Assembly: GCA_003353795.1 (NCBI GenBank) | Contig: PIVY01000002.1 | Coordinates: 12,552 to 76,551, forward strand | Origin: a bacterium | GTDB lineage: Bacteria; Krumholzibacteriota; Krumholzibacteriia; LZORAL124-64-63 | Direction of reading: 5' to 3' | Length of the DNA stretch: 64,000 bases | Shown: in pieces, positions 51,025 to 64,000 of the stretch | Numbering within the stretch: position 1 is the stretch's first letter | Layout: each line of letters opens with the position of its first letter | Translations under genes and position numbers: made by a program | The notes under the pieces: generated by a model | Seen by the model: the letters and a program-made list of their open reading frames with translations, nothing else | Told to the model about the DNA's origin: nothing | The model's database searches: none

Positions 51025-51875
51025 CCGTTGGCGGCGCTTCCCGCGTATACGGCCTCATCGGCGACCCCGTGGCGCACAGCCTGTCCCCGCGCCTGATGAA
51101 CGACGCCTTCGCGCGGCTGGGCATCGACGCGGTGTACGTGGCCTGGCGCCTGGCGTCCGACTACGTGGGCTCGGCCGTGGCCGGCCTCGTGACCCTGGGC
51201 GTGGCCGGCGTCAACGTGACCTACCCGCACAAGGCCGCGGTGCTGCCTCACGTGGCGTCCCGCTCCAACGCGGTCGCAACGCTGGGCGCGGCCAATGTAC
51301 TGGCCCTCGACGCCGACGGTTTCCGGGCCGAGAACACCGACGCCGGGGGGACCGCACTGGCCTTGACCGAGTTGCTCGACTGGCCGGTGACCCACCGTCG
51401 CGTGGTGATCCTCGGCGCCGGCGGCGCGGGCCGGGCGGCGGCGCTGGGCCTGCTGGTCGCGGGAGCCGAGCGCGTCGACTTCCTGGTGCGCGACCGTTCG
51501 CGTGCCGAAGCCGGACTTGTCGGCTTGCGCGCGGCTCATGAAGCGGTCGCCGTCCACGTTCTCGACAGCCGCGACGCAGCCGGGTGCCTGGACGCTGCCC
51601 ACCTCGTGGTGCAGGCCACCCCGGTGGGTCTCGACGATCCCGGCGCTGCTTCCCTAATCGACCCGGCACAGGCGCCGAACGCCGCGGGATTCGAACTGGT
51701 CTACGGCGAACGCCCCACCGCGTTCGCCGCCGCCTGGCGCGGCGCCGGTCGACCGTGTCTCGACGGACGCGATCTGCTGGCGGCCCAGGCCCACCTGGCT
51801 CTTCATGTCTGGCTGAACGACGCGCCCGACCTGGCCGACATGCGCCGGGTCATTGCGCCCGAGGAGGTCGCGTGA
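51021..51875 (+). CDS. aroE: Shikimate dehydrogenase.
   Basis: A GTG start gives a GTGA overlap. 'VYGLIGDPVAHSLSP' and 'ILGAGGAGRA' are the SDH motifs. Confidence 0.85.
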   Translation: MTVGGASRVYGLIGDPVAHSLSPRLMNDAFARLGIDAVYVAWRLASDYVGSAVAGLVTLGVAGVNVTYPHKAAVLPHVASRSNAVATLGAANVLALDADGFRAENTDAGGTALALTELLDWPVTHRRVVILGAGGAGRAAALGLLVAGAERVDFLVRDRSRAEAGLVGLRAAHEAVAVHVLDSRDAAGCLDAAHLVVQATPVGLDDPGAASLIDPAQAPNAAGFELVYGERPTAFAAAWRGAGRPCLDGRDLLAAQAHLALHVWLNDAPDLADMRRVIAPEEVA

Positions 51876-53545
51876 CCACGACGAAACGCAACGTGGTGCT
51901 CACCGGATTCATGGGCACCGGCAAGACCGCCGTCGGCCGCGTTCTGGCCGACCTGCTCGGCCGCCCCTTCTGCGATCTGGATGCGGTGATCGAGGAGGCG
52001 GCCGGCTGTCCGGTGGCCGAGATCTTCGCGGCCGAAGGCGAGGACGGTTTCCGACGCCGCGAGCGGGAGGCCGCCGCCGCGGTTGGTGCCCGGCGCGGCC
52101 TGGTGGTCGCCACTGGCGGCGGCACCCTCATCGACCCGGCCAATCGCGAGGCACTCTCCGCCGGCGGCGACCTGGTCCTCCTGACCACTGCGGCGCCCGA
52201 ACTGGCCGACCGCCTCGGCGACGGCGCCGGGCAACGCCCGCTGCTGGCTGGCCACGATGACCTGCGCGCCCGCATCGCTGAACTCCTCGCCGAGCGCGCG
52301 TCCGTCTATGCCGGCTGCGACCACGAATTCGACACGACAGCGCTCGATGCCGACGAGGCCGCCGCCCTGCTGGCTGCGCGCCTGGCCACGCCGTTGACGG
52401 AGATCGACATCCCCGTTCCCGGCGCCGCCGGTCTGCCCGTGCTCGCTGCCCGCGAGCTCACCGGATCGCGCGTGGTCACCGGCCGCGGCACGGTCTGTCG
52501 GCTCGGCGCCGAACTGCGCGACCGCGGTGTCACCGGCCGCGTGGTGCTGGTCATGCCCGAGGTGGTGCGCGATCACTACCTTCCGCGCCTGGTCGCCTCT
52601 CTCGACGCCGCCGAACTGTCGTGGGGCCTGCTGGGAATTCGCGACGGCGACCAGGAGAAGACCTTCGCCCAGGTGGAGGATCTGGTGGACGCCCTGGCCG
52701 GCCTCAGCGCCGATCGTGGCACCTGCGTGGTGGCCGTGGGCGGCGGCGTGACCGGCGACCTGGTGGGCTTCAGCGCCGCGGTCTACATGCGCGGCGCGGC
52801 CCTGGCCATGGTGCCGACCACCCTGCTGGCCCAGGTCGACGCCCACATCGGCGGCAAGACCGGCGTCAACGGTCGCCGCGTCAAGAACCTGGCCGGCTGT
52901 TTCCATCCGCCCATTCTGGTGGTGGCCGACCCCTGCATGCTGGCCACCCTGCCGGACCGTGAGCTGGCCGGCGGCATGGCCGAGGTGGTCAAGTCGGCGC
53001 TCATCGGCGACCCCGCGCTCTTCGACCAGCTCGAGGCGGCGCTTGTCGATCCGGCCGAGAATCGCGACGGCGATCCGCGCCGCGACCCAGAACTGCTCGA
53101 GACCTGTGTGGCGGCTTGCGCCGCCGTGAAGGGCGGCGTGGTCAGTCGCGATCCCTGGGAACTGGGGGAGCGGCGCTTGTTGAACCTGGGCCACACTCTC
53201 GGCCATGCCCTCGAAGCCCAGAGCGCCTACGGTCTGAGCCATGGCGAGGCCGTGTCCATCGGCACCGTGGCGGCCCTGCAAGTGGCCGTGGCGCGCGGCG
53301 CCGCCGAGGCCGATCTCCTCGACCGTACCCGCCGCCTGCTGCAGGCCTGCGGGCTGCCCACCACACCGCCCGAATACGATGCCGCCGACCTCCTCTCGCG
53401 ATTGCATCTGGACAAGAAGCGGCGTGACGGTCGACAGTTCTTCGTGCTGCCACTCGCCGCGGGCGACGTGGTGGTCGTGGACGACGTCGACGATGACGAG
53501 GCCCTCGCGGCCCTGGCCAGGGAGCAAGCGTGCGCATCCTCGTGA
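51872..53545 (+). CDS. aroKB: Bifunctional shikimate kinase / 3-dehydroquinate synthase (AroK-AroB fusion).
   Basis: A GTG start gives a GTGA overlap, and GAGGAGG lies upstream. The N-terminal ~175 aa '[15 protein letters not shown]' is the shikimate-kinase P-loop. The C-terminal ~380 aa '[14 protein letters not shown]...HIGGKTGVN' is DHQ synthase. One uninterrupted 557-codon frame spans both. Confidence 0.85.
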
Positions 53546-53991
53546 TTCACGGACCGAACCTGAACCTCTTGGGCATCCGCGAGCCGGAAGTCTACGGCAA
53601 GACGACCCTGCAGGAGATCAACCGGAGCCTGCGGGCGCGCGGCGAGGAGATCGGCGCGGCCATCTCCGATTTCCAGAGCAACCACGAGGGCGACATCGTC
53701 GACCGCATCCAGGCGGCGGCCCTCGATATTCCTCGGGCCGACGGCATCATCCTCAACCCGGCGGGCTACACCCACACCAGCGTGGCCATCCGCGATGCGC
53801 TCACGGCGGTGAGCCTGCCCACCTGGGAGATCCACATCTCCGATCCGTCGAAACGCGAGAAGTTCCGCCACGTGTCGCTGGTGCGCGACATCTGCGTGGG
53901 CTGCACCGCCGGCCGCGGCTCGGGCGGCTACATCGAGGCACTGGACGGGCTCGTGGCACACTTGAATTCCGGCGGGGAGGCGTCGTCATGA
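53530..53991 (+). CDS. aroQ: Type II 3-dehydroquinate dehydratase.
   Basis: A GTG at 53530 gives '[14 protein letters not shown]...HISD', the type II DHQase signature. It overlaps the 3' end of aroKB by 16 nt. Confidence 0.88.
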
Positions 53992-55073
53992 GTAGCGTCT
54001 TCGGCCGCCTGTTTCGCGTGAGCACTTTCGGCGAGAGCCATGGCGCCGGCCTCGGAGCGGTGGTGGACGGCTGCCCGCCCCGGCTGCCCCTCTCGGTGAC
54101 CGACATCCAGGCCGCTCTCGATCGTCGGCGTCCCGGCCAGAGCGCGCTGACCACGCCGCGCCAGGAGCCTGATCAGGTGGAGATCCTCTCCGGCGTTCAG
54201 GATGGCGCCACCCTGGGAACGCCCATCGGCCTCCTGATCCGCAACACCGACCAGAAGCCGGCCGACTACAAGGACACCGACGAGGTCCCGCGGCCGAGTC
54301 ACGCCGACTACACCTACCAGATGAAGTATGGTATGCGCGCCCGCAGCGGCGGCGGTCGGGCCAGCGCTCGCGAGACGGCAGCCCGGGTCGCAGCCGGCGC
54401 CGTGGCCTCGCAGCTCCTGCGCTTGCGCTGGGGCGTGGAGGTGGTGGCCTGGGTGGACGCGGTGGGCGACGAGGATCCCGCCCTCGTGGATCCCGCGACC
54501 GTCACCCAGGATGCCGTCGATACCAATGCCGTGCGTTGCCCCGACATCGACGCGGCCGATCGCTTCACCGATCTGATCACCAGCGCCCGCGACGCCGGCG
54601 ATTCGGTGGGCGGCGTGGTGGCCTGCGTGGTGCGCGGCTGTCCTGCCGGCTGGGGCGAGCCGGTGTTCGAGAAGGCCGAGGCACGCCTGGCCGGCGCCAT
54701 GCTGTCGCTGCCGGCGAGCAAGGGATTCGAGATCGGCAGCGGATTCGCCGGCACGCGGTTGCGCGGCAGTCAGCACAACGATGCGTTCGTGGCGCGGGCC
54801 GATGGTTCTCTCGGCACGGCTACCAATCGCAGCGGCGGTGTGCAGGGCGGCATCACCAACGGGGAGCCGGTGGTCATCCGGGTGGCGTTCAAGCCGACGT
54901 CGACCATCGCCATGCCGCAGCCGACGGTGGACTACGAGGGCAAGGCGACGGTGCTGGAGGCGAAAGGGCGCCATGATCCCTGCGTGTTGCCGCGGGCGGT
55001 GCCCATCGTGGAGGCGATGGCGGCGCTGGTGATGGCGGATCTGGGGATGTTGCAGGCGGGGCGGGACGACTAG
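53988..55073 (+). CDS. aroC: Chorismate synthase.
   Basis: An ATGA overlap joins it to aroQ, and GGGGAGG lies upstream. 'FGESHG..LG.VVDGCP' and 'GRSSARETA' are chorismate-synthase motifs. The long table ORF is an alternate-frame extension. Confidence 0.9.
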
Positions 55074-55476: not shown

Positions 55477-56160
55477 ATGCAATCCTTCGTCGCAGAATTC
55501 TTCCGCTCCGGCGGCCCCCTCATGTGGGTCATCCTGGCGGTCCTCGCGGCGGCCGCCGCAGTCATCGTCGAGCGACTGCACTTCTACCTGGTGGTCTGCC
55601 GCGACGACGCCGACCACCTCGCTACCGGCGCCATCCGCCGGCTCAACGGCGGCGACTTCAAGGGTGCTCTCGCCCAGGTCAGCGGCCGCCGCAGCCCGGC
55701 GGCCGCGATCCTCGGCCAGGCCGTCTCGCGCTTCAATGCCGGCCACTCGCTCACCGAGGTCCGCCACGGTGTCGAGGAAGTGGCCATCCGCGCGGTGCCG
55801 CTCTACGGACGGCGCGTGGGCTACCTTGCCATGCTCGCCAACATCGCCACGTTGACCGGTCTGCTGGGCACCATCTTCGGGTTGCAGAAGAGCTTCAGTT
55901 CGCTGGCCATGGTGGAGGCGGCGGAGAAGGCGTCGGTGCTGGCCGGCGGCATCAGTCAGGCCATGAACACCACCGCCTTCGGCCTCATCGTGGCCATCCC
56001 CTGCCTGGTGGCCTACACCCGGCTGTCCAGCCTGCAGTCGCGCAAGACCGAGGAGTGCGACGCCGCGGCCGTGAAGCTGCTCAACTACCTGGAGGCCCGT
56101 CAGGACGCCGACGATGTCGAGACCGAGACCGTGCGCTCCCTGCAGCGCGCGGCGGTGTGA
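55477..56160 (+). CDS. exbB: MotA/TolQ/ExbB-family proton channel.
   Basis: An ATG at 55477 follows GGAGG. There are three TM segments, and 'LGTIFGL...AMNTTAFGLIVAIP' is typical of the family. Confidence 0.85.
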   Translation: MQSFVAEFFRSGGPLMWVILAVLAAAAAVIVERLHFYLVVCRDDADHLATGAIRRLNGGDFKGALAQVSGRRSPAAAILGQAVSRFNAGHSLTEVRHGVEEVAIRAVPLYGRRVGYLAMLANIATLTGLLGTIFGLQKSFSSLAMVEAAEKASVLAGGISQAMNTTAFGLIVAIPCLVAYTRLSSLQSRKTEECDAAAVKLLNYLEARQDADDVETETVRSLQRAAV

Positions 56161-56165
56161 TCACC

Positions 56166-56672
56166 ATGAGCGCGCGCCAGGCATCGATCCTCTCGCGGCG
56201 GCCGACCGCACTCGGTGATTCCGTCGAGATCGACGTGACCCCCATCATGAACATGTTCATCATCCTGATCCCCTTCCTGGTGAGCATGGCGGTGTTCACC
56301 CACCTCGCGACGCACACGTTCAGCCTGCCCGCCGAGGATGGTCCGAGCCAGGCCCGCACCGCCGACGAGGTGCCGCTGACGGTGGCCGTCACTTCCAGTG
56401 CCGTGGCCGTGGTCTGGGGTGACGTGGAGGTGGCGCGCTTCGTCGTGGCCGCCGACGGCTCTTTCGACACGGTCGCCCTCGAGACCGTGCTGGCTGCCGA
56501 GCGCACGCGCCGCCCCGAAGTGGACCAGGTGGTGGTCGCCGTGGACGACGGCGTGATCTGCGCCGATGTGGTGCGCTGCCTTGATCATTGCAAGGCCGCC
56601 GGATACCGGGACGTGGGGCTGGCTGCCGGCGCCAATCTCGGCTCTTCGCAGGACCCGGAGGTGACGCCGTGA
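56166..56672 (+). CDS. exbD: ExbD/TolR-family biopolymer transport protein (paralogue 1).
   Basis: It has 'IDVTPIMNMFIILIPFLV', a single TM segment and a periplasmic domain. Confidence 0.8.
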   Translation: MSARQASILSRRPTALGDSVEIDVTPIMNMFIILIPFLVSMAVFTHLATHTFSLPAEDGPSQARTADEVPLTVAVTSSAVAVVWGDVEVARFVVAADGSFDTVALETVLAAERTRRPEVDQVVVAVDDGVICADVVRCLDHCKAAGYRDVGLAAGANLGSSQDPEVTP

Positions 56673-57133
56673 TCGCCGCCCGCAACGCCCTGCCGCGTTC
56701 CCGGCCGAAGACCAACGGTATTGCGCGGCCTCAGCTCACCTCGCTGGTCGACATGATGGTCATCCTGCTGGTGTTCCTGCTGAAGAGCTTCTCGGTGGAG
56801 GGCCAGCTCGTCACGCCGTCGCCCGATCTGCACCTGCCCGAGTCCGCCGCCACGACGCCGGTGGAGTCGGCGTTGAGCCTGGAAGTGACCACCGGCGGCA
56901 TCGTGCTCGACGGTCGCCACGTGGCCGACCTGCCCACGGCGAGCACCGACAGCCTGCTCATCGCGCCGCTCGCCAGCGCGCTGCGCGACCTCGGGCCCGG
57001 TGGCGAAGGCCAGGCGCTCTCCATCCAGTGCGACCGTCGCGTGGACTTCGCCGTGCTCAAGCGGGTGCTCTTCACCTGCGACCGCACCGGACACGACGAC
57101 CTGTCGCTGCTGGTGATCCGGGAGGATGCGTGA
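56669..57133 (+). CDS. exbD: ExbD/TolR-family biopolymer transport protein (paralogue 2).
   Basis: A GTG start gives a GTGA overlap, and GGAGG lies upstream. It has 'QLTSLVDMMVILLVFLL'. Confidence 0.8.
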   Translation: MIAARNALPRSRPKTNGIARPQLTSLVDMMVILLVFLLKSFSVEGQLVTPSPDLHLPESAATTPVESALSLEVTTGGIVLDGRHVADLPTASTDSLLIAPLASALRDLGPGGEGQALSIQCDRRVDFAVLKRVLFTCDRTGHDDLSLLVIREDA

Positions 57134-57936
57134 TGTCGGCCCATGCGAGCAAGCTCGCCGTCTACGCCCAGCCGGCCGCCCGCCACGGCCGCGGCGGATT
57201 CCTCTCCGGCAGCCTCGGCACGAGCCTGCTGATCTTCGGGGGTCTCGGTCTGTTGCTACTGGCCGTGGACCTGCCCGAGGTGGTCCGCAGTCCCCAGCGG
57301 GTCGCCCATCGCATCGCTTTCCACGCGCCGACGCCGGCACCGGCGCCGGTTCCCGACATCAAGCCGGTAGTGGCCGAGATCGTTCCGGATACCCGGCTCG
57401 CGCAACCCATCGACCGACCGGCAACCGTGCCGGTGATCGAAACGCCCGTGGTGGCTGCACCGGATCCCGAGCCGGTGCCCACCGCGCCGGCGCCTCGTCG
57501 CGTCTATGGCGTGCGCAAGGTCATGGCCCGCGGCCTCGGCAGCGGCAGCGGCGCCGGGTCGGTGGGCCTGGTGACCAGGCGCGGCAACGTGCTCGACGGC
57601 GTGGCCGACACTCTCACCGCCACCGCCGGCGACCTGCGCGGCGATCTGGCCGCCCTCAGCACCGTGGAGCGCGCGCCCGAGCCCGTGCACCAGGTGAAGC
57701 CGCGCTACAGCGAGGCGCTCATCGCCGCCCGCGCCGGCGGCGTGGTCACCGCCAAGCTACTCGTCGACGCCGAAGGATCGGTGGCCGACGTCGTGGTGCT
57801 CGAGCACATCGGCCACGATTCGGCCCAGCTCGCCGCCGACGCCTTCCGGCAATTCCGCTTTCACCCCGCACTGCGTCACGGTGAGGCCGTGGCGGTGTGG
57901 ATCGTCTATCGCATGCGTTTCGAGTTCCAGAAGTGA
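57133..57936 (+). CDS. tonB: TonB-family energy transducer.
   Basis: An ATGA overlap joins it to the upstream exbD. It has an N-terminal TM segment, a Pro/Ala-rich linker 'PTPAPAPVPDIKP' and a C-terminal TonB_C domain 'VKPRYSEALIAARAGGVVTAKLLVDAEGSV'. Confidence 0.8.
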   Translation: MSAHASKLAVYAQPAARHGRGGFLSGSLGTSLLIFGGLGLLLLAVDLPEVVRSPQRVAHRIAFHAPTPAPAPVPDIKPVVAEIVPDTRLAQPIDRPATVPVIETPVVAAPDPEPVPTAPAPRRVYGVRKVMARGLGSGSGAGSVGLVTRRGNVLDGVADTLTATAGDLRGDLAALSTVERAPEPVHQVKPRYSEALIAARAGGVVTAKLLVDAEGSVADVVVLEHIGHDSAQLAADAFRQFRFHPALRHGEAVAVWIVYRMRFEFQK

Positions 57937-57944
57937 GCCAGAAC

Positions 57945-60599
57945 ATGATGCTTCGCACCCTGATCCCCGTCGTGCTCCTGCTGGCCCTGCCTGCCATGGC
58001 GACCGCGCAGGACGATGCTCCCGAGATCCTCGAACCCGACGTGGCTCCCACGCTGAGCCACTTCGCCGAGGCCGTCTATCCACCGGTCGCCCTGCGCGAG
58101 GGACGCGAAGGCGCCGTGTTGCTGGAGATGCTGGTCCTGGAGACCGGCCGGGTCGACTCGGTGATCGTGGTCGACGGCCTCGCGCCTGACCTCGACGCCG
58201 CCGCCGCGGCCGCCGTCGCAGAGTTCGTCTTCACGCCGGCCGAGGCCGGCGGCGAGCCCGTACCCGTCTGGGTGCAGTTCGAGTACGTCTTCTCCATCAG
58301 CGAGCAGACCCGATTCATCGCCGAGTACGTCAACGTCCGTGGCCGGCTGCGCGAGATGGGCACTCGGGTGCCGCTGGCAGGCGCCATGGTGGTTGCCGCG
58401 TTTCCGGATTCGTTGGCGCGCCCGGCGCTGGACGTTCCCTGGGACGCGTACCTCGACCGCATCGGACACTTCGCCGGCCAGTACCTGGAGGAGGGCCGGC
58501 TCGTCGCCTTCACTGACGATGACGGGCGCTTCTCGTTCAAATCGCTGCCGCCCGGCGAGGTCGTGTTCTCCTTTCCCAACGCCGGCTACGAGGCTTTCCA
58601 GGAGACCGTCCTGATCGCGGCGGAAGAACTCGTGGAGGTGGATTCCTGGGCCCGCCGCAGCGCCTACAACGAGTACGAGGTCGTGGTCTACGGCCGCGGC
58701 GAGGAAACCGAAGTCTCGCGGCAGACCCTGTCGGTGACCGAGGTCGAGCGCATCGCCGGCTTCGGCGGTGACGTCATCAAGAGCATCCAGGCCCTGCCCG
58801 GCGTGGCTCGGCCCACCATGGAAAATCCCGCGGCCATCGTGATCCGCGGCAGCGGCAACTACGACACCCGCTTCTTCCTGGACGGCATCGACATCCCGTT
58901 GCTCTTCCACTACGGCGGCCTCAAGTCCACCTACAACTCGCTGTCACTGGGTAGCGTCGACATGTATCCCGGCGGCTTCGGCACCTCGTTCGGCAACGCC
59001 ATCGGCGGTGTGGTGGAGCTCAAGGGTCGGCCCGGTCGCAAGGATCGCTGGCGCACCGTGCTCGACGCCAGCATGCTCGACGCCAGCTTCCATACCGAGG
59101 GGCCCCTGGGCGACAAATTCTCCCTCACCCTCAGCGCCCGCCGCAGCTTCATCGGCGAAGTCATGGACGCCGCACTCTCGGGCAACGACGATTTCAACAT
59201 GGCCATGGCGCCCTACTACTGGGACGCGATCGGCCGGCTCGACTACGACCCGGCACCGGGCCACCACCTCTTCGCCACGGCCTTCGCGGTGAAGGACAAG
59301 ATGTCCATGGTGGTGGCCGACGCGCAGGAGGGCAGCGCCTCGGTCAACGCGGCCACCGACGAGGTCGCCATGGACATTCGCTTCAGCCGCTACATCCTCG
59401 GCTACGACGCGCGGCTGGGCGAGCGTGTCCAGAATACATTCCGCGCCGCCTACGGCCGTCAAAGCGAATCCGGCCACGTGTTCGGCCACTTCGACTGGGA
59501 GGGCGGGGGACCCTTGTGGCAGCTGCGCGACGAGCTGTCGGTGTCGTGGAATCCCTGGCTGGCCACCGTGGTGGGCGGCGAGTGGATCCGCACGCCGTAC
59601 ACCTATTCGGTGGCCGCCGAGGGCTGGCGTCGCAGCACCGTGGAGCAGACGTTCGGGCTGCAGGGCGTCTGGGCCAATCTCGAGCTGCGCCCCACCAAGA
59701 ATCTTCTGCTCATCCCGGGCGTCCGCTACGACTACTACGACCACCTCGACAAGGACGAGGTGTCCTACCGGTCGAGCGCCCGCTGGCGCTATCATCCCGA
59801 CCGCTCCTTCACCGCGTCCTACGGAACCTACAACCAGATGCCCGCTCCCTCCGGCCAGTCCACCGATCCGGTCTTCGGCAATCCCGACCTGCCGCCCACG
59901 CTGGCCCGCCACGCGACCCTGGGCCACGAGTGGCGCATCAACGACCGCCTCTCGCTCAAGGTGGAGGGCTACCACAACACCCAGGAACTGATCCCGTCGG
60001 AGACCGACAGCCTTGGCCTGAACTTCGCGCCCGACACCGACGCCCGCATGTACGGCTTCGAGTTCATGCTCCGCCACGAACCCAGCGAGCGTTTCTTCGG
60101 CTGGATCAGCTACAGCCTCGGTCGTAGCGAGCGCCAGTACTCGCGCCGACCCAGCACCTCGGTGACCGAGTGGGATCCGGCGGACTGGATCCTCTTCGAG
60201 ATGGACCAGACTCACCACGTCGAGGCCGTGGGCTCGTGGAACCTGGGACGGAACTGGAGCTTCGGCACCCGCATCCAGTACGTCAGCGGCGTGCCCGTGA
60301 CCCCGCTGCTCAGCTATTCCTCGGGTCTCTTCGAGTTCGACGCCGACTCCGGCGAGTACATCGAGGTGGGCGGCGAGTACCTGTCCGACCGTATGGAGCC
60401 GTACTTCCGCACCGACCTGCGTCTCGACAAGAAGTGGATCAACAAGCGCACCATCTGGACGGCGTATCTCGATCTGCAGAACGCGAACTACTTCGTCCAC
60501 AACAGCCCCGAGGGCTTCACCTACAACTACGATTACTCGGAGCGCGAGGAGTACGGCTGGATCTTCATGCCGTCTCTCGGGCTGCGCGTGGAATTCTAG
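57945..60599 (+). CDS. TonB-dependent receptor-like outer-membrane protein (Oar-like) with N-terminal TonB_C-like and CarboxypepD_reg-like domains.
   Basis: It has a signal peptide. 'AVYPPVALREGREGAVLLEMLVLETGRVDSVIVV' is a TonB_C-like motif. 'DDDGRFSFKSLPPGEVVF' is CarboxypepD_reg-like. The plug region is 'IQALPGVA...IVIRGSG...FLDGIDI'. The C-terminal beta-barrel ends in an aromatic residue (…RVEF). Confidence 0.75.
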   Translation: MMLRTLIPVVLLLALPAMATAQDDAPEILEPDVAPTLSHFAEAVYPPVALREGREGAVLLEMLVLETGRVDSVIVVDGLAPDLDAAAAAAVAEFVFTPAEAGGEPVPVWVQFEYVFSISEQTRFIAEYVNVRGRLREMGTRVPLAGAMVVAAFPDSLARPALDVPWDAYLDRIGHFAGQYLEEGRLVAFTDDDGRFSFKSLPPGEVVFSFPNAGYEAFQETVLIAAEELVEVDSWARRSAYNEYEVVVYGRGEETEVSRQTLSVTEVERIAGFGGDVIKSIQALPGVARPTMENPAAIVIRGSGNYDTRFFLDGIDIPLLFHYGGLKSTYNSLSLGSVDMYPGGFGTSFGNAIGGVVELKGRPGRKDRWRTVLDASMLDASFHTEGPLGDKFSLTLSARRSFIGEVMDAALSGNDDFNMAMAPYYWDAIGRLDYDPAPGHHLFATAFAVKDKMSMVVADAQEGSASVNAATDEVAMDIRFSRYILGYDARLGERVQNTFRAAYGRQSESGHVFGHFDWEGGGPLWQLRDELSVSWNPWLATVVGGEWIRTPYTYSVAAEGWRRSTVEQTFGLQGVWANLELRPTKNLLLIPGVRYDYYDHLDKDEVSYRSSARWRYHPDRSFTASYGTYNQMPAPSGQSTDPVFGNPDLPPTLARHATLGHEWRINDRLSLKVEGYHNTQELIPSETDSLGLNFAPDTDARMYGFEFMLRHEPSERFFGWISYSLGRSERQYSRRPSTSVTEWDPADWILFEMDQTHHVEAVGSWNLGRNWSFGTRIQYVSGVPVTPLLSYSSGLFEFDADSGEYIEVGGEYLSDRMEPYFRTDLRLDKKWINKRTIWTAYLDLQNANYFVHNSPEGFTYNYDYSEREEYGWIFMPSLGLRVEF

Positions 60600-60611: not shown

Positions 60612-61769
60612 ATGAAGACCCTGCTGACCGCGATCCTGCTCGTGTCCGCATTGCTGACCGGCTGCGGCGACGGCTTCCCCGGCCAGGAGATGAGCCTGGG
60701 CACCGAGGACAAGACCCGGCCCTACGCCGTCACCGTCGAGCCGCCCGAGGTGGCGCCCGGCGACACCGTGACCGTGCGCCTGCGGTACCAGGCGGCGCGA
60801 CCCAGCGACGTCGTGTCCACGTGGCGCGTGGCCCTCGACTACGCCACCGGTCCCTACGAGGCCGACGAGATCGAGCGTAGGCTGGTGCCGCTGCCCGACG
60901 TGGCGCCGCCGGTGGTCGACCAGTTCGGATTCATGACCCAGGTCTTCCAGTACGCGGTGCCCGATTCGGTGCCGCTGTGGTCGACCGCCATTGCCGACGT
61001 GATCACGGACCCGTCCATGCTCTACATCCTCGACCTCCTGGAGCCCGACGGCGTCGGCGAGCCGCCGCACAAGACCGAGGTGGACGCCTGGTTGCGCGGC
61101 CTCACTCCCGACGACCTCGCCGCCATGAACCCGCTCGAACGCACGGCCACCCAGCGCCTGGCCGACCTCTTCAGCTGCTCCATCCGGTTCCGCGTCACCC
61201 TTGACGCCAACACGTCGGTGGACGTGACCCGCAACCTCACCGTGCGGTACAGCAGTCGGCTGGGCAGCGACAACGTCAACGTCAACGCCGAGATTACGCG
61301 GTTCGAGATCGGCGTGATCCCGGCGCCCGACGTGGACATCTCCGATCTCGAGGAGTGGGAGGACCGGATCGTGTGGTACGCCTTTGATGGTACGTCGGAG
61401 AACGGCCTGCCCGAGGCGCGGGTGCCCAACGAGCCGGGTAATACCTACCTCGTAAGCGTGCGACAGGATCCGCAGCTATACACGTCGCCGTTCGAACTGG
61501 ACCAGACGCTCGAGGAGCAAGGTGACTACCGCTGGTACTTCCTGCGCCTCGACGCGCCCGAATCCGGCCACGATCTCTACGTGGACGAGGAGGGTGAGCC
61601 CACCGAGATGTTCATGCTGGACGAGGATGTCCGGATGCTGCTGCCGGGAGGCGACTCGAACTTCCGGCTGCTGTCGGTGGTGTACGACAAGCGGCCCGAG
61701 TGGATCCAGTACGCGGCCGTGCCCGGGGCTACCGTGACGGTGGGGGAGGTGGTGTTCGAGGCGCCCTGA
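60612..61769 (+). CDS. Hypothetical lipoprotein downstream of the receptor.
   Basis: An ATG at 60612 follows GGAGG. 'MKTLLTAILLVSALLTGC' is a lipobox. Confidence 0.55.
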   Translation: MKTLLTAILLVSALLTGCGDGFPGQEMSLGTEDKTRPYAVTVEPPEVAPGDTVTVRLRYQAARPSDVVSTWRVALDYATGPYEADEIERRLVPLPDVAPPVVDQFGFMTQVFQYAVPDSVPLWSTAIADVITDPSMLYILDLLEPDGVGEPPHKTEVDAWLRGLTPDDLAAMNPLERTATQRLADLFSCSIRFRVTLDANTSVDVTRNLTVRYSSRLGSDNVNVNAEITRFEIGVIPAPDVDISDLEEWEDRIVWYAFDGTSENGLPEARVPNEPGNTYLVSVRQDPQLYTSPFELDQTLEEQGDYRWYFLRLDAPESGHDLYVDEEGEPTEMFMLDEDVRMLLPGGDSNFRLLSVVYDKRPEWIQYAAVPGATVTVGEVVFEAP

Positions 61770-61796: not shown

Positions 61797-61830
61797 AGAG
61801 CCCCCGCCGGTCGGCGGGGGCTCTTCGTGC
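61797..61830. terminator. Strong GC hairpin acting as a bidirectional terminator between convergent genes.
   Basis: The sequence is AGAGCCCCCGCCGgtCGGCGGGGGCTCT, flanked by T-rich runs on both strands. Confidence 0.55.
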
Positions 61831-61846: not shown

Positions 61847-63118
61847 TCAGTGGGCGATCTCGTAGCAGACGACCGCTGGCAACGCGGGCTCGCCGTCCTC
61901 GCCGCCGTAGGTGCTGCCGTCGCCGAACTGGGCGGCCAGGGATTCGAAGTAGCTCTCGATCACCAGGATGCGATCCGGTCCGGCCAGGACGATGCCCACC
62001 TCGCTGGCCCGGTGCGGCGCCTTCAGCGCCACCTGCTCGGCAAACTCGCCGCTCGGCTCGAACACGTCGTACACGGCCATCACGCCGGGCGCGTCGGGTC
62101 GCGCGCCACGGCCGCTGAGGACCCAGAGGCGTCCGTCGACAGCCACCTGGATGCCGCGGGCCAGGCTCATGACGGCGGCCTCCTGACGCTCCACCTCGAT
62201 GCGGACCTCCATGGGCATCCCGGTCATCGCCGTCTCGATCATGCCGTAGAGCGCCCGATACTCGCGATCGGTCCGTTGCAGCGGCTCGTAGTCCCGTTCG
62301 ATGACCCGGCTCACCGAGCCGTCCGGCGCGTGGACCGTGATTGCGTAGCGGTCGCGGTCGTGGACCGTGTAGACCGAGCCGTCGGCGCCGGCGGCGAAGC
62401 AGAACCAGAACGGGGGCAGGTGCTCGCGCTCATCGAAGACGAAGTCGTTGAAATCGTACTGGGAAAGGGCGCTCACGAAATGGGCCTTCAGCGTGCTGTC
62501 GGAGTCGTAGCTCTCGAGAAAGTTGTCGCGAAGACTGATACCCGGGCCGCCGTCGCTCTGGTGGGTTCCCGAGAGCACGACCCGATCGCCGGCGCCCTGG
62601 CAGGCGGTGAGACTGTGGGCGCCGCCGTCGGTGCCGCCGACCCTCAGACGCCCGGCCGGCAAGCCCTCGCCGTCGACCATCACCACCATGCCGGGAAACT
62701 CCTGGATCAGCCCCACGCGACCGTCGTCGAGCAACAGCATGTCGCGCGGCCGCCGTACCTCGCCCGGTCCCTCGCCCTCGCGGAACAGGGTGCGCACCAG
62801 CTCGCCGTCGGTGTCGTAGACGGAGACCTGGCAGAGCTGAGAGTCGAGGACGTAGGCATGGCCGCTAGCGTCGGCGGCGACGCGGGGGATGAGCCCGAAG
62901 AAAGCATCGTCGTCCTCGCCGCCCACGCGCCAGACTTCACGCAACTCCACGGTGCGCAGGCCGTCGCGGGATTCGGCGCCGTTGCGGACGTGGGGGACGC
63001 CGTCGATGATCGTCGTCTCGGCGGCCCTGGTAGGCTCGACGAGGCCGATGATTACGAGGTGGATGAGCAGCAGTCCGGCGAGCCATGCCGTCAACTGGGC
63101 GGAGACGCGGGGATTCAT
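61847..63118 (-). CDS. Secreted beta-propeller-like hypothetical protein.
   Basis: It has an N-terminal signal/TM segment 'LTAWLAGLLLIHLVII'. Repeated 'DG..Y' strand motifs suggest a 6-bladed beta-propeller (TolB/NHL-like). Confidence 0.5.
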   Translation of the reverse strand: MNPRVSAQLTAWLAGLLLIHLVIIGLVEPTRAAETTIIDGVPHVRNGAESRDGLRTVELREVWRVGGEDDDAFFGLIPRVAADASGHAYVLDSQLCQVSVYDTDGELVRTLFREGEGPGEVRRPRDMLLLDDGRVGLIQEFPGMVVMVDGEGLPAGRLRVGGTDGGAHSLTACQGAGDRVVLSGTHQSDGGPGISLRDNFLESYDSDSTLKAHFVSALSQYDFNDFVFDEREHLPPFWFCFAAGADGSVYTVHDRDRYAITVHAPDGSVSRVIERDYEPLQRTDREYRALYGMIETAMTGMPMEVRIEVERQEAAVMSLARGIQVAVDGRLWVLSGRGARPDAPGVMAVYDVFEPSGEFAEQVALKAPHRASEVGIVLAGPDRILVIESYFESLAAQFGDGSTYGGEDGEPALPAVVCYEIAH

Positions 63119-63188: not shown

Positions 63189-63503
63189 TCAGGTGAGGAG
63201 ACTGAGCAGCCAGAGCGCCGCCATCCCCGCCGCGAGCGTGGCGAAGATGCTCCGAGTGCGTACGGCGGTCACCGTCGCCAGCACTGCGGCCACGGGCCGA
63301 ATCCAGCTTGCCCAGTCCGCGGCTCCCGCGCCGGTGTCCGGCACCACCGCCGGCACGACCAGCGCCGCCAGCACCGCCGCCGGCACGAGCCGGAGGATCC
63401 GTTGCACGAGCAGCGGTACGTCTCCACGCACCAGGGCCAGGAACGAGAGCCGCAGCAAGAAGGTGCCGGCGCCGGCGACCAGCATGAGAGACCAGGGGGT
63501 CAT
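63189..63503 (-). CDS. azlD: AzlD-family branched-chain amino acid transport accessory protein.
   Basis: An ATG at 63503 overlaps the azlC stop as ATGA. It is a small hydrophobic protein of about 105 aa. Confidence 0.6.
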   Translation of the reverse strand: MTPWSLMLVAGAGTFLLRLSFLALVRGDVPLLVQRILRLVPAAVLAALVVPAVVPDTGAGAADWASWIRPVAAVLATVTAVRTRSIFATLAAGMAALWLLSLLT

Positions 63504-64000
63504 GCCGCCGACCTCCGGGATTCGGTCGCCTCGACCGCCCGGGTGCGGTTCTCGACCAGCAGCCCGACCGCAATGCCCACCACGGCCGCCACGATCAACC
63601 CGAGGTTCCAGGGCAGTCCGCGCCCCACGAGCGCCACGGCGCCTGCGACACCGGCGGTCACCAGGCTGGCGCGGTCGCTGACCAGCGGCACCAGCAACGC
63701 CAGGAACGCCAGCGGCACCGAGAAATCCAGATGCCACGACGCCGGCACCAGCGAGCCCACCAGCACGCCGACCACGGTGCCGGTCTGCCAGGTCAGCCAC
63801 AGCGAGATCGCGGCGCCGAAGTAGTACCACGGCAATCCGGCCGCGTCGGGGCGGCGCCGTTGCCGGGCCACGGTGACGGCGAAGGCCTGGTCGGTGATCA
63901 GGTAGGCAAGCACCGCCTTGATGCGAAGGGGCAGGTGCGACAGCCAGGGCGCCAGCACGGCGCTGTACATGACGAAGCGCAGGTTGATCACCAGGATGGT
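63500..64000 (-). CDS. azlC: AzlC-family membrane protein, 5'-truncated at the window end.
   Basis: It is hydrophobic and matches AzlC-family architecture, positioned upstream of azlD. The N-terminus lies beyond the window edge. Confidence 0.5.
   Translation of the reverse strand, partial: TILVINLRFVMYSAVLAPWLSHLPLRIKAVLAYLITDQAFAVTVARQRRRPDAAGLPWYYFGAAISLWLTWQTGTVVGVLVGSLVPASWHLDFSVPLAFLALLVPLVSDRASLVTAGVAGAVALVGRGLPWNLGLIVAAVVGIAVGLLVENRTRAVEATESRRSAA

Follow-up and report, generated by a model that had tools for sequence, protein, structure and literature searches.

A TonB C-terminal-like domain at the N-terminus of a conserved family of TonB-dependent transporters preferentially linked to a dedicated Ton motor

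The DNA analysed here, referred to as the window, comprises 64,000 nucleotides from a member of the Krumholzibacteriota (assembly GCA_003353795.1, contig PIVY01000002.1, positions 12,552 to 76,551 of the forward strand), and all coordinates below refer to it. An open reading frame with an ATG start codon at position 57945 and a stop codon at 60597-60599 encodes a predicted TonB-dependent transporter of 884 amino acids, hereafter called the receptor. A previous analysis of the sequence alone (the sequence-only reading) had proposed that the receptor carries, directly after its signal peptide, a domain of the type that forms the C-terminus of TonB (TonB_C), followed by a CarboxypepD_reg-like domain, a plug and a barrel, and that its gene belongs to an operon consisting of exbB, two exbD paralogues, tonB, the receptor gene and a lipoprotein gene. 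The operon was confirmed by Pfam matches as well as by its gene junctions. The first exbD gene starts 5 nt past the exbB stop codon, the GTG start codon of the second overlaps the stop codon of the first in GTGA, tonB starts within a TGATG overlap with the stop codon of the second exbD, and gaps of 8 and 12 nt separate tonB from the receptor gene and the receptor gene from the lipoprotein gene. The domains of the receptor were likewise recovered in the proposed order, and the features of the locus are compiled in Table 1.

Table 1 Features of the receptor, its operon and the neighbouring genes. Positions are those of the window; residues are those of the receptor; aa, amino acids; AF2, AlphaFold2; MFE, minimum free energy.
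Feature	Position	Strand	Evidence or remark
TonB-dependent transporter (receptor), N-terminal extension of TonB_C and CarboxypepD_reg-like domains	57945..60599	+	Pfam, AF2 model, Foldseek
Signal peptide MMLRTLIPVVLLLALPAMATA, residues 1-21	57945..58007	+	read by eye; AxA sites after residue 19 or 21
Receptor-borne TonB_C-like domain, residues about 30-125 (Pfam core 43-117)	58032..58319	+	Pfam, TIGR01352, fold, phmmer
CarboxypepD_reg-like (transthyretin/Ig-like) domain, residues about 129-236	58329..58652	+	fold match; Pfam below cut-off
TonB box EYEVVVYG, residues 243-250	58671..58694	+	directly before plug; conserved in homologues
Plug domain, residues 254-356	58704..59012	+	Pfam Plug
Beta-barrel, residues about 370-884	59052..60596	+	PF00593, AF2 strands, fold matches
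exbB, 227 aa, proton-channel subunit of the Ton motor	55477..56160	+	Pfam MotA_ExbB, E 7.2e-25
exbD paralogue 1, 168 aa	56166..56672	+	Pfam ExbD, E 1.4e-13
exbD paralogue 2, 154 aa from GTG	56669..57133	+	Pfam ExbD, E 2.1e-10
tonB, 267 aa: N-terminal hydrophobic anchor, Pro-rich spacer, C-terminal TonB_C	57133..57936	+	Pfam
Conserved partner lipoprotein, 385 aa, lipobox LLTGC	60612..61769	+	AGGAGG 6-11 nt before ATG
G+C-rich hairpin, perfect 12 bp	about 61797-61824		MFE -33.4 kcal/mol, z -5.6
Fused shikimate kinase / 3-dehydroquinate synthase aroK-aroB	51872-53545	+	
Type II dehydroquinase	53530-53991	+	overlaps preceding aroK-aroB
Chorismate synthase	53988-55073	+	
Convergent 423-aa protein	61847-63118	-	weak beta-propeller/NHL-like matches (DUF5128, ScyF-like), both below cut-off
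AzlD and AzlC branched-chain amino-acid transport genes	63189-63830, 63500-63991	-	AzlC reading frame extends beyond window end

The first domain of the receptor was identified by two profile models. Pfam TonB_C (PF03544) matched residues 43-117 with an E-value of 1.5e-14 and a score of 54.6 bits (curated cut-off 24.6), which is higher than the score of the adjacent tonB product (44.6 bits; residues 189-264, E 2e-11), and the NCBIfam model tonB_Cterm (TIGR01352) was passed with 37.1 bits at a cut-off of 27.1. The CarboxypepD_reg models PF13620 and PF13715 reached 22-23 bits at residues 185-248, under their cut-off of 32, and exceeded it in the relatives L064, L074 and P0242; in the receptor itself this domain was assigned by its fold (see below). 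Plug (PF07715) was detected with 25.2 bits (cut-off 23.9) and the barrel model PF00593 at residues 475-846 with 70.6 bits and an E-value of 3.2e-19. Plug and barrel together span about 640 residues, an ordinary size, and the protein ends with ...GLRVEF, i.e. with an aromatic residue as in other outer-membrane barrels. Neither an STN (PF07660) nor an AMIN domain was matched by the Pfam scan of the receptor, and no further copy of a TonB_C-bearing receptor is present in the window. Equivalent signal peptides precede the TonB_C domain in the homologues, and the alignment runs continuously through signal peptide and domain. A start codon downstream of the domain and a different fold of the segment were both considered as objections to the sequence-only reading and neither was found, as the signal peptide lies upstream of the domain and the domain has the TonB fold.

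We therefore regard the receptor as a true outer-membrane transporter of the TonB-dependent type, belonging to a family that is uncharacterised, in agreement with all sequence and fold criteria applied, and we are highly confident of its anatomy and family assignment. A function of the receptor as an energy transducer, i.e. as a TonB protein, was rejected, since it possesses a cleavable signal peptide, has neither an inner-membrane anchor nor a Pro-rich spacer and carries the domain N-terminally, before a barrel.

The predicted structure supports this domain arrangement. A full-length AF2 model of the receptor, built on 45 homologues, had a mean predicted local distance difference test (pLDDT) score of 82.8, with about 90 for the TonB_C domain (residues 30-125), about 87 for the next domain (residues 129-236) and mostly 85-94 for the barrel, which consists of long alternating strands. 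The signal peptide region showed low pLDDT values, and the linker containing the TonB box (residues 243-254) stayed below 50 and was not docked on the TonB_C domain in cis. Comparison of the full-length model with the PDB by Foldseek returned the transporters FptA, BtuB, FepA, FoxA and FhuA with E-values of about 1e-24 to 1e-20; the best matches were FptA, BtuB and FepA (E about 1e-24), with template modelling (TM) scores normalised to the target of up to 0.77 and the 22-strand fold. A second model restricted to residues 22-245 reached a pLDDT of 94.6 (about 97 for the TonB_C domain) and a predicted TM score (pTM) of 0.85, and the latter suggests that the TonB_C domain and the immunoglobulin-like (Ig-like) domain adopt a fixed mutual orientation.

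The first domain shows the order of elements of the TonB C-terminal fold (helix, two strands, helix, third strand) in the AF2 model. Its best structural match is the C-terminal domain of Pseudomonas aeruginosa TonB in 6i97_D (TM score 0.85, root-mean-square deviation 1.6 Å over 87 columns, 25% identity), which is the TonB from the FoxA complex in its TonB-box-bound form. It also superposes on the TonB C-terminal domains of Neisseria meningitidis and Salmonella, and matches to this fold included 9ddz (TM score 0.75) and 8rd6 (TM score 0.63). Searching the PDB chains with the sequence of the domain by phmmer led to the TonB C-terminal domains of 6fip (E 8.5e-4) and 6i97 (E 1.2e-3); the same search with the whole receptor gave nothing at E <= 0.01. 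The second domain matched the transthyretin-like domain of carboxypeptidase D (5aq0_B, TM score 0.85) as well as 3mn8, so that the CarboxypepD_reg-like domain of the sequence-only reading was corroborated at the level of the fold, with the Pfam scores remaining below cut-off. At this level the receptor shares with the Oar-like subclass of transporters a CarboxypepD_reg domain that lies behind the signal peptide and ahead of the TonB box.

The close parallel to the adjacent TonB that the sequence-only reading had described could not be upheld. The two domains share 34% identity over 73 residues (E 2e-8), and they fall into separate classes. When 66 receptor domains were compared with 33 cognate TonB C-terminal domains, the identity was 45% within the receptor domains and 46% within the TonB domains, whereas it was 28% between the two classes. 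The nearest neighbour of a domain always belonged to the same class, the classes formed separate clades, and cognate pairs of receptor domain and TonB (28.7% identity) were no closer to each other than non-cognate ones. This indicates that the fusion is ancient and has been maintained and did not arise by local duplication, and the idea that the receptor domain had recently been copied from the neighbouring TonB was accordingly rejected. Judged from these identities, the receptor domain appears to be under purifying selection comparable to that on real TonB C-terminal domains. The classes also differ in the Y-P motif of the TonB_C consensus, which is kept in the receptor domains and replaced by Y-S or Y-T in the operon-encoded TonB proteins (orthologues in L001-L065); the tonB product of the window has Y-S at this position.

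To describe the distribution of this architecture, we collected homologues from a word-indexed protein search, from an alignment-based scan of genomes with one genome per species and from a HMMER search of 1.84 billion cluster representatives. The protein search yielded 220 homologues, and most of the full-length ones (880-940 amino acids) carry PF03544. The few that are named are annotated as 'TonB family protein' or 'TonB-dependent receptor' and stem from genomes labelled Krumholzibacteriia, Eisenbacteria, Fibrobacterota and Elusimicrobia, the closest of them from Krumholzibacteriia. While a genome scan with the single receptor sequence gave no confirmed relatives, the alignment-based query recovered at least 575 in species-representative genomes. 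The best 79 loci belong to Krumholzibacteriia, Eisenbacteria, Fibrobacterota (including Chitinivibrionia), Raymondbacteria and Myxococcota (Myxococcaceae, Polyangia and Bradymonadia), and in 66 of these 79 the TonB_C domain is located in frame ahead of the receptor. The HMMER search with residues 22-245 detected 41 clusters at E <= 1e-30 and 906 at E <= 1e-10 among representatives at 50% identity; many of the matches are proteins of 850-1020 amino acids with the two-domain unit at the N-terminus. Spot checks revealed more transporter clusters with an N-terminal TonB_C domain, in which the Ig-like domain was recognisable or not. The TonB_C-bearing transporter is thus a conserved family present in several phyla. 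The sequence-only reading had called a receptor with this domain unusual, which holds in so far as the architecture lies outside the five described in a published survey (see below); it is no rarity of a single genome. TonB_C domains were also seen beyond classical TonB proteins in other contexts, as 5-8 tandem copies or as three copies together with TPR repeats (P0155, P0159, P0171, P0173), and TonB_C is a promiscuous periplasmic module.

Three architectures occur in the transporter family, each with a signal peptide: TonB_C, Ig-like domain, plug and barrel; Ig-like domain, plug and barrel; or plug and barrel only. Close paralogues that lack the TonB_C domain or both N-terminal domains (L007-L011, L016-L020 and L027) are 52-62% identical to the receptor. 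None of these domain-less paralogues lies behind a ton operon, and they constitute a natural set of deletion variants. We determined the linkage to ton genes for those loci that have at least 3 kb of upstream sequence. The receptor gene directly follows exbB-exbD-exbD-tonB in 29 of 58 loci encoding a domain-bearing receptor and in none of 8 loci encoding a domain-less one (Fisher p 0.007). Among close relatives (at least 49% identity), the ton operon is located directly upstream in all 12 domain-bearing and in none of the 8 domain-less loci. TonB_C-bearing receptors are consequently preferentially linked to a dedicated Ton motor. Some genomes of Fibrobacterota contain both a ton-linked and an unlinked locus (for example L030 and L061, or L039 and L057). 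Upstream of domain-bearing receptors without ton genes, no alternative conserved partner was found in the four loci inspected (L028, L035, L053 and L032), in which the upstream genes encode DUF6345, a beta-CASP RNase, a NUDIX protein, an epimerase, DUF218 and an HZS_alpha-like protein.

In contrast to the N-terminal domains, the gene downstream of the receptor is constant. The lipoprotein gene follows the receptor gene in all close relatives, with the TonB_C domain present or absent (L001-L020), and a distant homologue lies 3' of the receptor in loci of Fibrobacteres (e.g. L035, 9618-10760; 23% identity over 300 residues, E 2e-6). No Pfam or NCBIfam model matched the lipoprotein of the window, and it shows no SusD signature. 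The mature N-terminus is strongly conserved (C-x3-FPDEEMHLG-x4-K-x-RP-x-A-x4-EPPEAAPGDTV), and the protein is probably the surface or periplasmic partner of the receptor. As lipoprotein and TonB box are kept in all architectures, receptor and lipoprotein together form the core that the family conserves, and the periplasmic N-terminal modules are add-ons that vary among the paralogues. The N-terminus of the lipoprotein (RPYAVTVEPPE...) superficially resembles a TonB box and was considered as a ligand of the TonB_C domain; this was rejected, since it is equally conserved in domain-less loci.

A survey of 34,893 transporters distinguished five N-terminal architectures, none of which contains TonB_C (PMC6434023), and published architecture surveys of TonB-dependent transporters omit the TonB_C-bearing class. 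No paper describing such a transporter was found in the full-text literature, from which subscription journals were largely absent, and the status of the TonB_C extension as undescribed is therefore provisional. The known systems that come closest are Oar of Myxococcus xanthus and the SusC-type transporters (Bacteroides BT1763, SusC), which share the order of signal peptide, CarboxypepD_reg domain, TonB box, plug and barrel. Oar is moreover encoded beside tonB1, exbB1, exbD1 and exbD2 (PMC6434023, PMC11658791), as the receptor is beside tonB, exbB and two exbD genes, and a partner lipoprotein gene downstream is also found in SusCD-like systems. Unlike Oar and SusC, the receptor possesses an additional TonB_C domain before the Ig-like domain, which places it outside the subclass as described; its barrel is of ordinary size with FptA, BtuB and FepA as best fold matches, and its lipoprotein lacks the signature of SusD or any other family. 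The domain itself resembles that of TonB in passing the Pfam and TIGRFAM models of the C-terminus, keeping the Y-P motif and superposing on solved TonB C-terminal domains. It differs in that it is located N-terminally in an outer-membrane protein behind a signal peptide and belongs to a clade separate from the TonB of the same operon. In contrast to transporters with STN or AMIN domains, the receptor has no match to either, and no sigma or anti-sigma genes are present at the locus; the features of a transducer type involved in cell-surface signalling, STN and a sigma/anti-sigma pair, are both missing.

Precedents come from two further comparisons. The NCBIfam model NF038079, which represents the myxochelin receptor MxcH, matched the N-terminal domain of the receptor with its positions 1-90 (E 2.7e-16), and the same positions aligned with the C-terminal domain encoded by the neighbouring tonB gene (E 2.6e-12). 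This indicates that transporters of the MxcH type also begin with a TonB_C-like domain, and no paper discussing the N-terminal domain of MxcH was found in the literature searched. Matches confined to the N-terminal part of the model also occurred in the relatives from Myxococcota and in other clusters. The receptor is nevertheless not an equivalog of MxcH, as it reached 58.8 bits at a cut-off of 925 and only over positions 1-90; its plug and barrel are not MxcH-like, and no siderophore genes lie nearby. The myxococcotal relatives L064 and L074 are also far under this cut-off. The cross-match of NF038079 to ordinary TonB proteins (E about 1e-12) is harmless given the cut-off of 925 bits. The combination of TonB_C and receptor is already implicit, although unremarked, in the domain annotations of databases and in the MxcH model. 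In Bacteroides thetaiotaomicron, TonB9 and TonB10 contain two TonB_C domains each, and TonB7 and TonB11 combine CarboxypepD_reg with TonB_C (PMC10350073). The latter two resemble the receptor in uniting both domain types in one periplasmic protein, and the former two in the presence of two TonB_C domains in one system. All four are, however, TonB homologues and have no barrel; TonB7 and TonB11 carry their domains in reverse order (Ig-like domain, then TonB_C), and the pair of TonB_C domains found in TonB9 and TonB10 would here be split between TonB and receptor. Altogether, the TonB_C-bearing transporter represents a conserved, phylum-spanning and apparently uncharacterised variant of a well-known system.

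Any function of the TonB_C domain has to be reconciled with the TonB box of the receptor. Among the 45 homologues, E245, V248 and G250 of the box show no variation and V247 and Y249 almost none. The conserved box in front of the plug indicates that the receptor keeps the normal handle for TonB. A similar box is present in the paralogues without the TonB_C domain, and a difference in the motif between domain-bearing and domain-less paralogues was looked for and rejected. The sharing of a canonical box with domain-less paralogues argues that ordinary TonB-box coupling has been retained. Since the box starts about 6 residues past the last strand of the Ig-like domain and the N-terminal domains are modelled as one unit, a TonB domain bound to the box must adjoin them.

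The explanation that in our view accounts best for these observations, and which we consider somewhat probable as a whole, combines the anatomy of a transporter with an accessory coupling role of its TonB_C domain. The receptor would transport its substrate in the ordinary way, energised by the adjacent TonB, the C-terminal domain of which would pair with the TonB box. Held next to the box, the TonB_C domain of the receptor itself would serve as an accessory coupling module and could contact the C-terminal domain of the incoming TonB or pair with whichever edge of the box strand is left free. Such a free edge is present in solved complexes of TonB with transporters. The two TonB_C domains, one contributed by each partner, might then grip the box together, and this joint grip could make the force-bearing junction with the dedicated Ton motor more stable or bring it into position in advance. 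Homotypic contacts with TonB had also been suggested in the sequence-only reading. We favour a grip because of the forced proximity of the domains, the canonical features of the receptor's TonB_C and the recurring pairs of TonB_C domains and combinations of CarboxypepD_reg with TonB_C in TonB homologues of Bacteroides; as a specific coupling mechanism it is put forward tentatively. The preferential linkage to ton operons, the conservation of the domain and the proteins with tandem TonB_C copies count in favour of the coupling role as well. Still more speculative, and rather unlikely in our estimation, is an arrangement in which the TonB-box strand is flanked by one domain on each of its edges, or enclosed by a heterodimer of the two, so that one continuous intermolecular sheet results.

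Several observations speak against an accessory coupling role. Paralogues without the TonB_C domain keep the TonB box and the lipoprotein partner, which suggests that the domain is dispensable for the basic transport cycle. The Oar protein of Myxococcus also remains functional after deletion of its CarboxypepD_reg extension (PMC6434023). The lack of greater similarity within cognate pairs of receptor domain and TonB gives no positive sign of co-adaptation. Furthermore, the remaining 29 of the 58 domain-bearing receptors, mostly from Fibrobacterota and Myxococcota, are not encoded beside ton genes, so that the link to the operon is not universal.

The same features allow other explanations. The domain might act as a cap or decoy in cis, which binds the receptor's own TonB box by strand addition at rest and hides or protects it until substrate binding sets it free, with an autoinhibitory or gating effect; this corresponds to the decoy or regulator of the sequence-only reading. 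Retention of the canonical signature (the Y-P motif and the conserved last strand), a Pfam score above that of the adjacent TonB, the TonB-box-bound TonB of 6i97_D as best structural match and the high local concentration that results from domain and box being part of one chain would all fit such a function. The full-length model, however, left the box undocked with low pLDDT, which is weak evidence against it, and the tether of about 6 residues between Ig-like domain and box may be too short to reach the binding edge. The box is moreover alike in both classes of paralogues, and a domain that competes with TonB all the time should reduce transport, although its preferred location is beside a dedicated Ton motor. 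We therefore regard a cis cap as unlikely. By analogy with STN domains, the domain could instead act in trans and capture the TonB box or a similar strand of another receptor copy, of another transporter or of a periplasmic or inner-membrane partner, leading to clustering or signalling. The use of the TonB_C fold as a generic strand-addition module in many non-TonB contexts, such as the tandem copies and TPR fusions, and the receptors encoded away from ton genes would be in line with this. No sigma or anti-sigma gene or other conserved candidate partner adjoins the receptor gene, though, neither here nor in the inspected loci of Fibrobacteres, where the genes upstream are unrelated housekeeping genes, and the equal conservation of the lipoprotein N-terminus in domain-less loci shows that it is not a domain-specific ligand. 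Binding in trans thus seems improbable.

A purely structural role, in which the domain serves as an anchor or spacer between the receptor and peptidoglycan or within the periplasm and has no part in binding the TonB box, appears about equally improbable. Peptidoglycan binding has been reported for the C-terminal domain of Escherichia coli TonB. A precedent is also provided by the cyanobacterial transporters to which a cell-wall-binding AMIN domain is fused N-terminally (bioRxiv 10.64898/2026.07.30.741596). Nothing in the sequence of the receptor suggests a peptidoglycan-binding motif, however, and the association with the ton operon among close relatives would not be expected for a mere tether. 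The proximity of tonB, which ends 8 nt upstream, finally makes an origin by fusion or duplication historically plausible, and one could suspect an annotation or assembly error or a decaying relic of a fusion between tonB and the receptor gene. This can be considered effectively refuted and retains hardly any probability: tonB encodes a complete protein of its own, C-terminal domain included, the receptor domain comes after a signal peptide, the domain is maintained at 45% identity over at least four phyla and 66 loci in a clade of its own, and it has a pLDDT above 90 in the model of the N-terminal unit together with a clear fold match.

How TonB recognises and pulls its receptors, which roles N-terminal extensions play and whether the C-terminal domains of TonB work alone or as pairs is debated, and a family in which a TonB_C domain lies next to the receptor's own TonB box offers a ready-made test case for the engagement of TonB. 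If the more speculative arrangement in one continuous sheet is correct, the two-domain grip split between the partners would represent a mechanically reinforced, partner-specific junction with a dedicated motor, and the family would be a natural experiment on the long-disputed contribution of C-terminal-domain dimerisation of TonB to force transmission. As the family extends across Fibrobacterota, Krumholzibacteriota, Eisenbacteria and Myxococcota and the fusion seems to be shared by the myxochelin receptor type, tractable relatives should exist. The public names of these receptors are inconsistent, and the label 'TonB family protein' is misleading, as the proteins have no TonB anchor, spacer or C-terminally placed domain.

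The genes adjoining the receptor gene are the ton genes and the lipoprotein gene, and a shikimate-pathway cluster on the same strand (51872-55073) is located directly upstream of the operon. The sequence-only reading had placed a strong terminator at 61797. A perfect hairpin does exist there, between the convergent genes for the lipoprotein and the beta-propeller-like protein; it is flanked by no T tract on either side and was not called by the terminator pattern scan. It is the probable end of the operon and may serve as a bidirectional terminator in a host of high G+C content (about 0.66-0.73 for the window in the region of the receptor). The convergent 423-amino-acid protein beyond the hairpin has a signal-anchor-like N-terminus.

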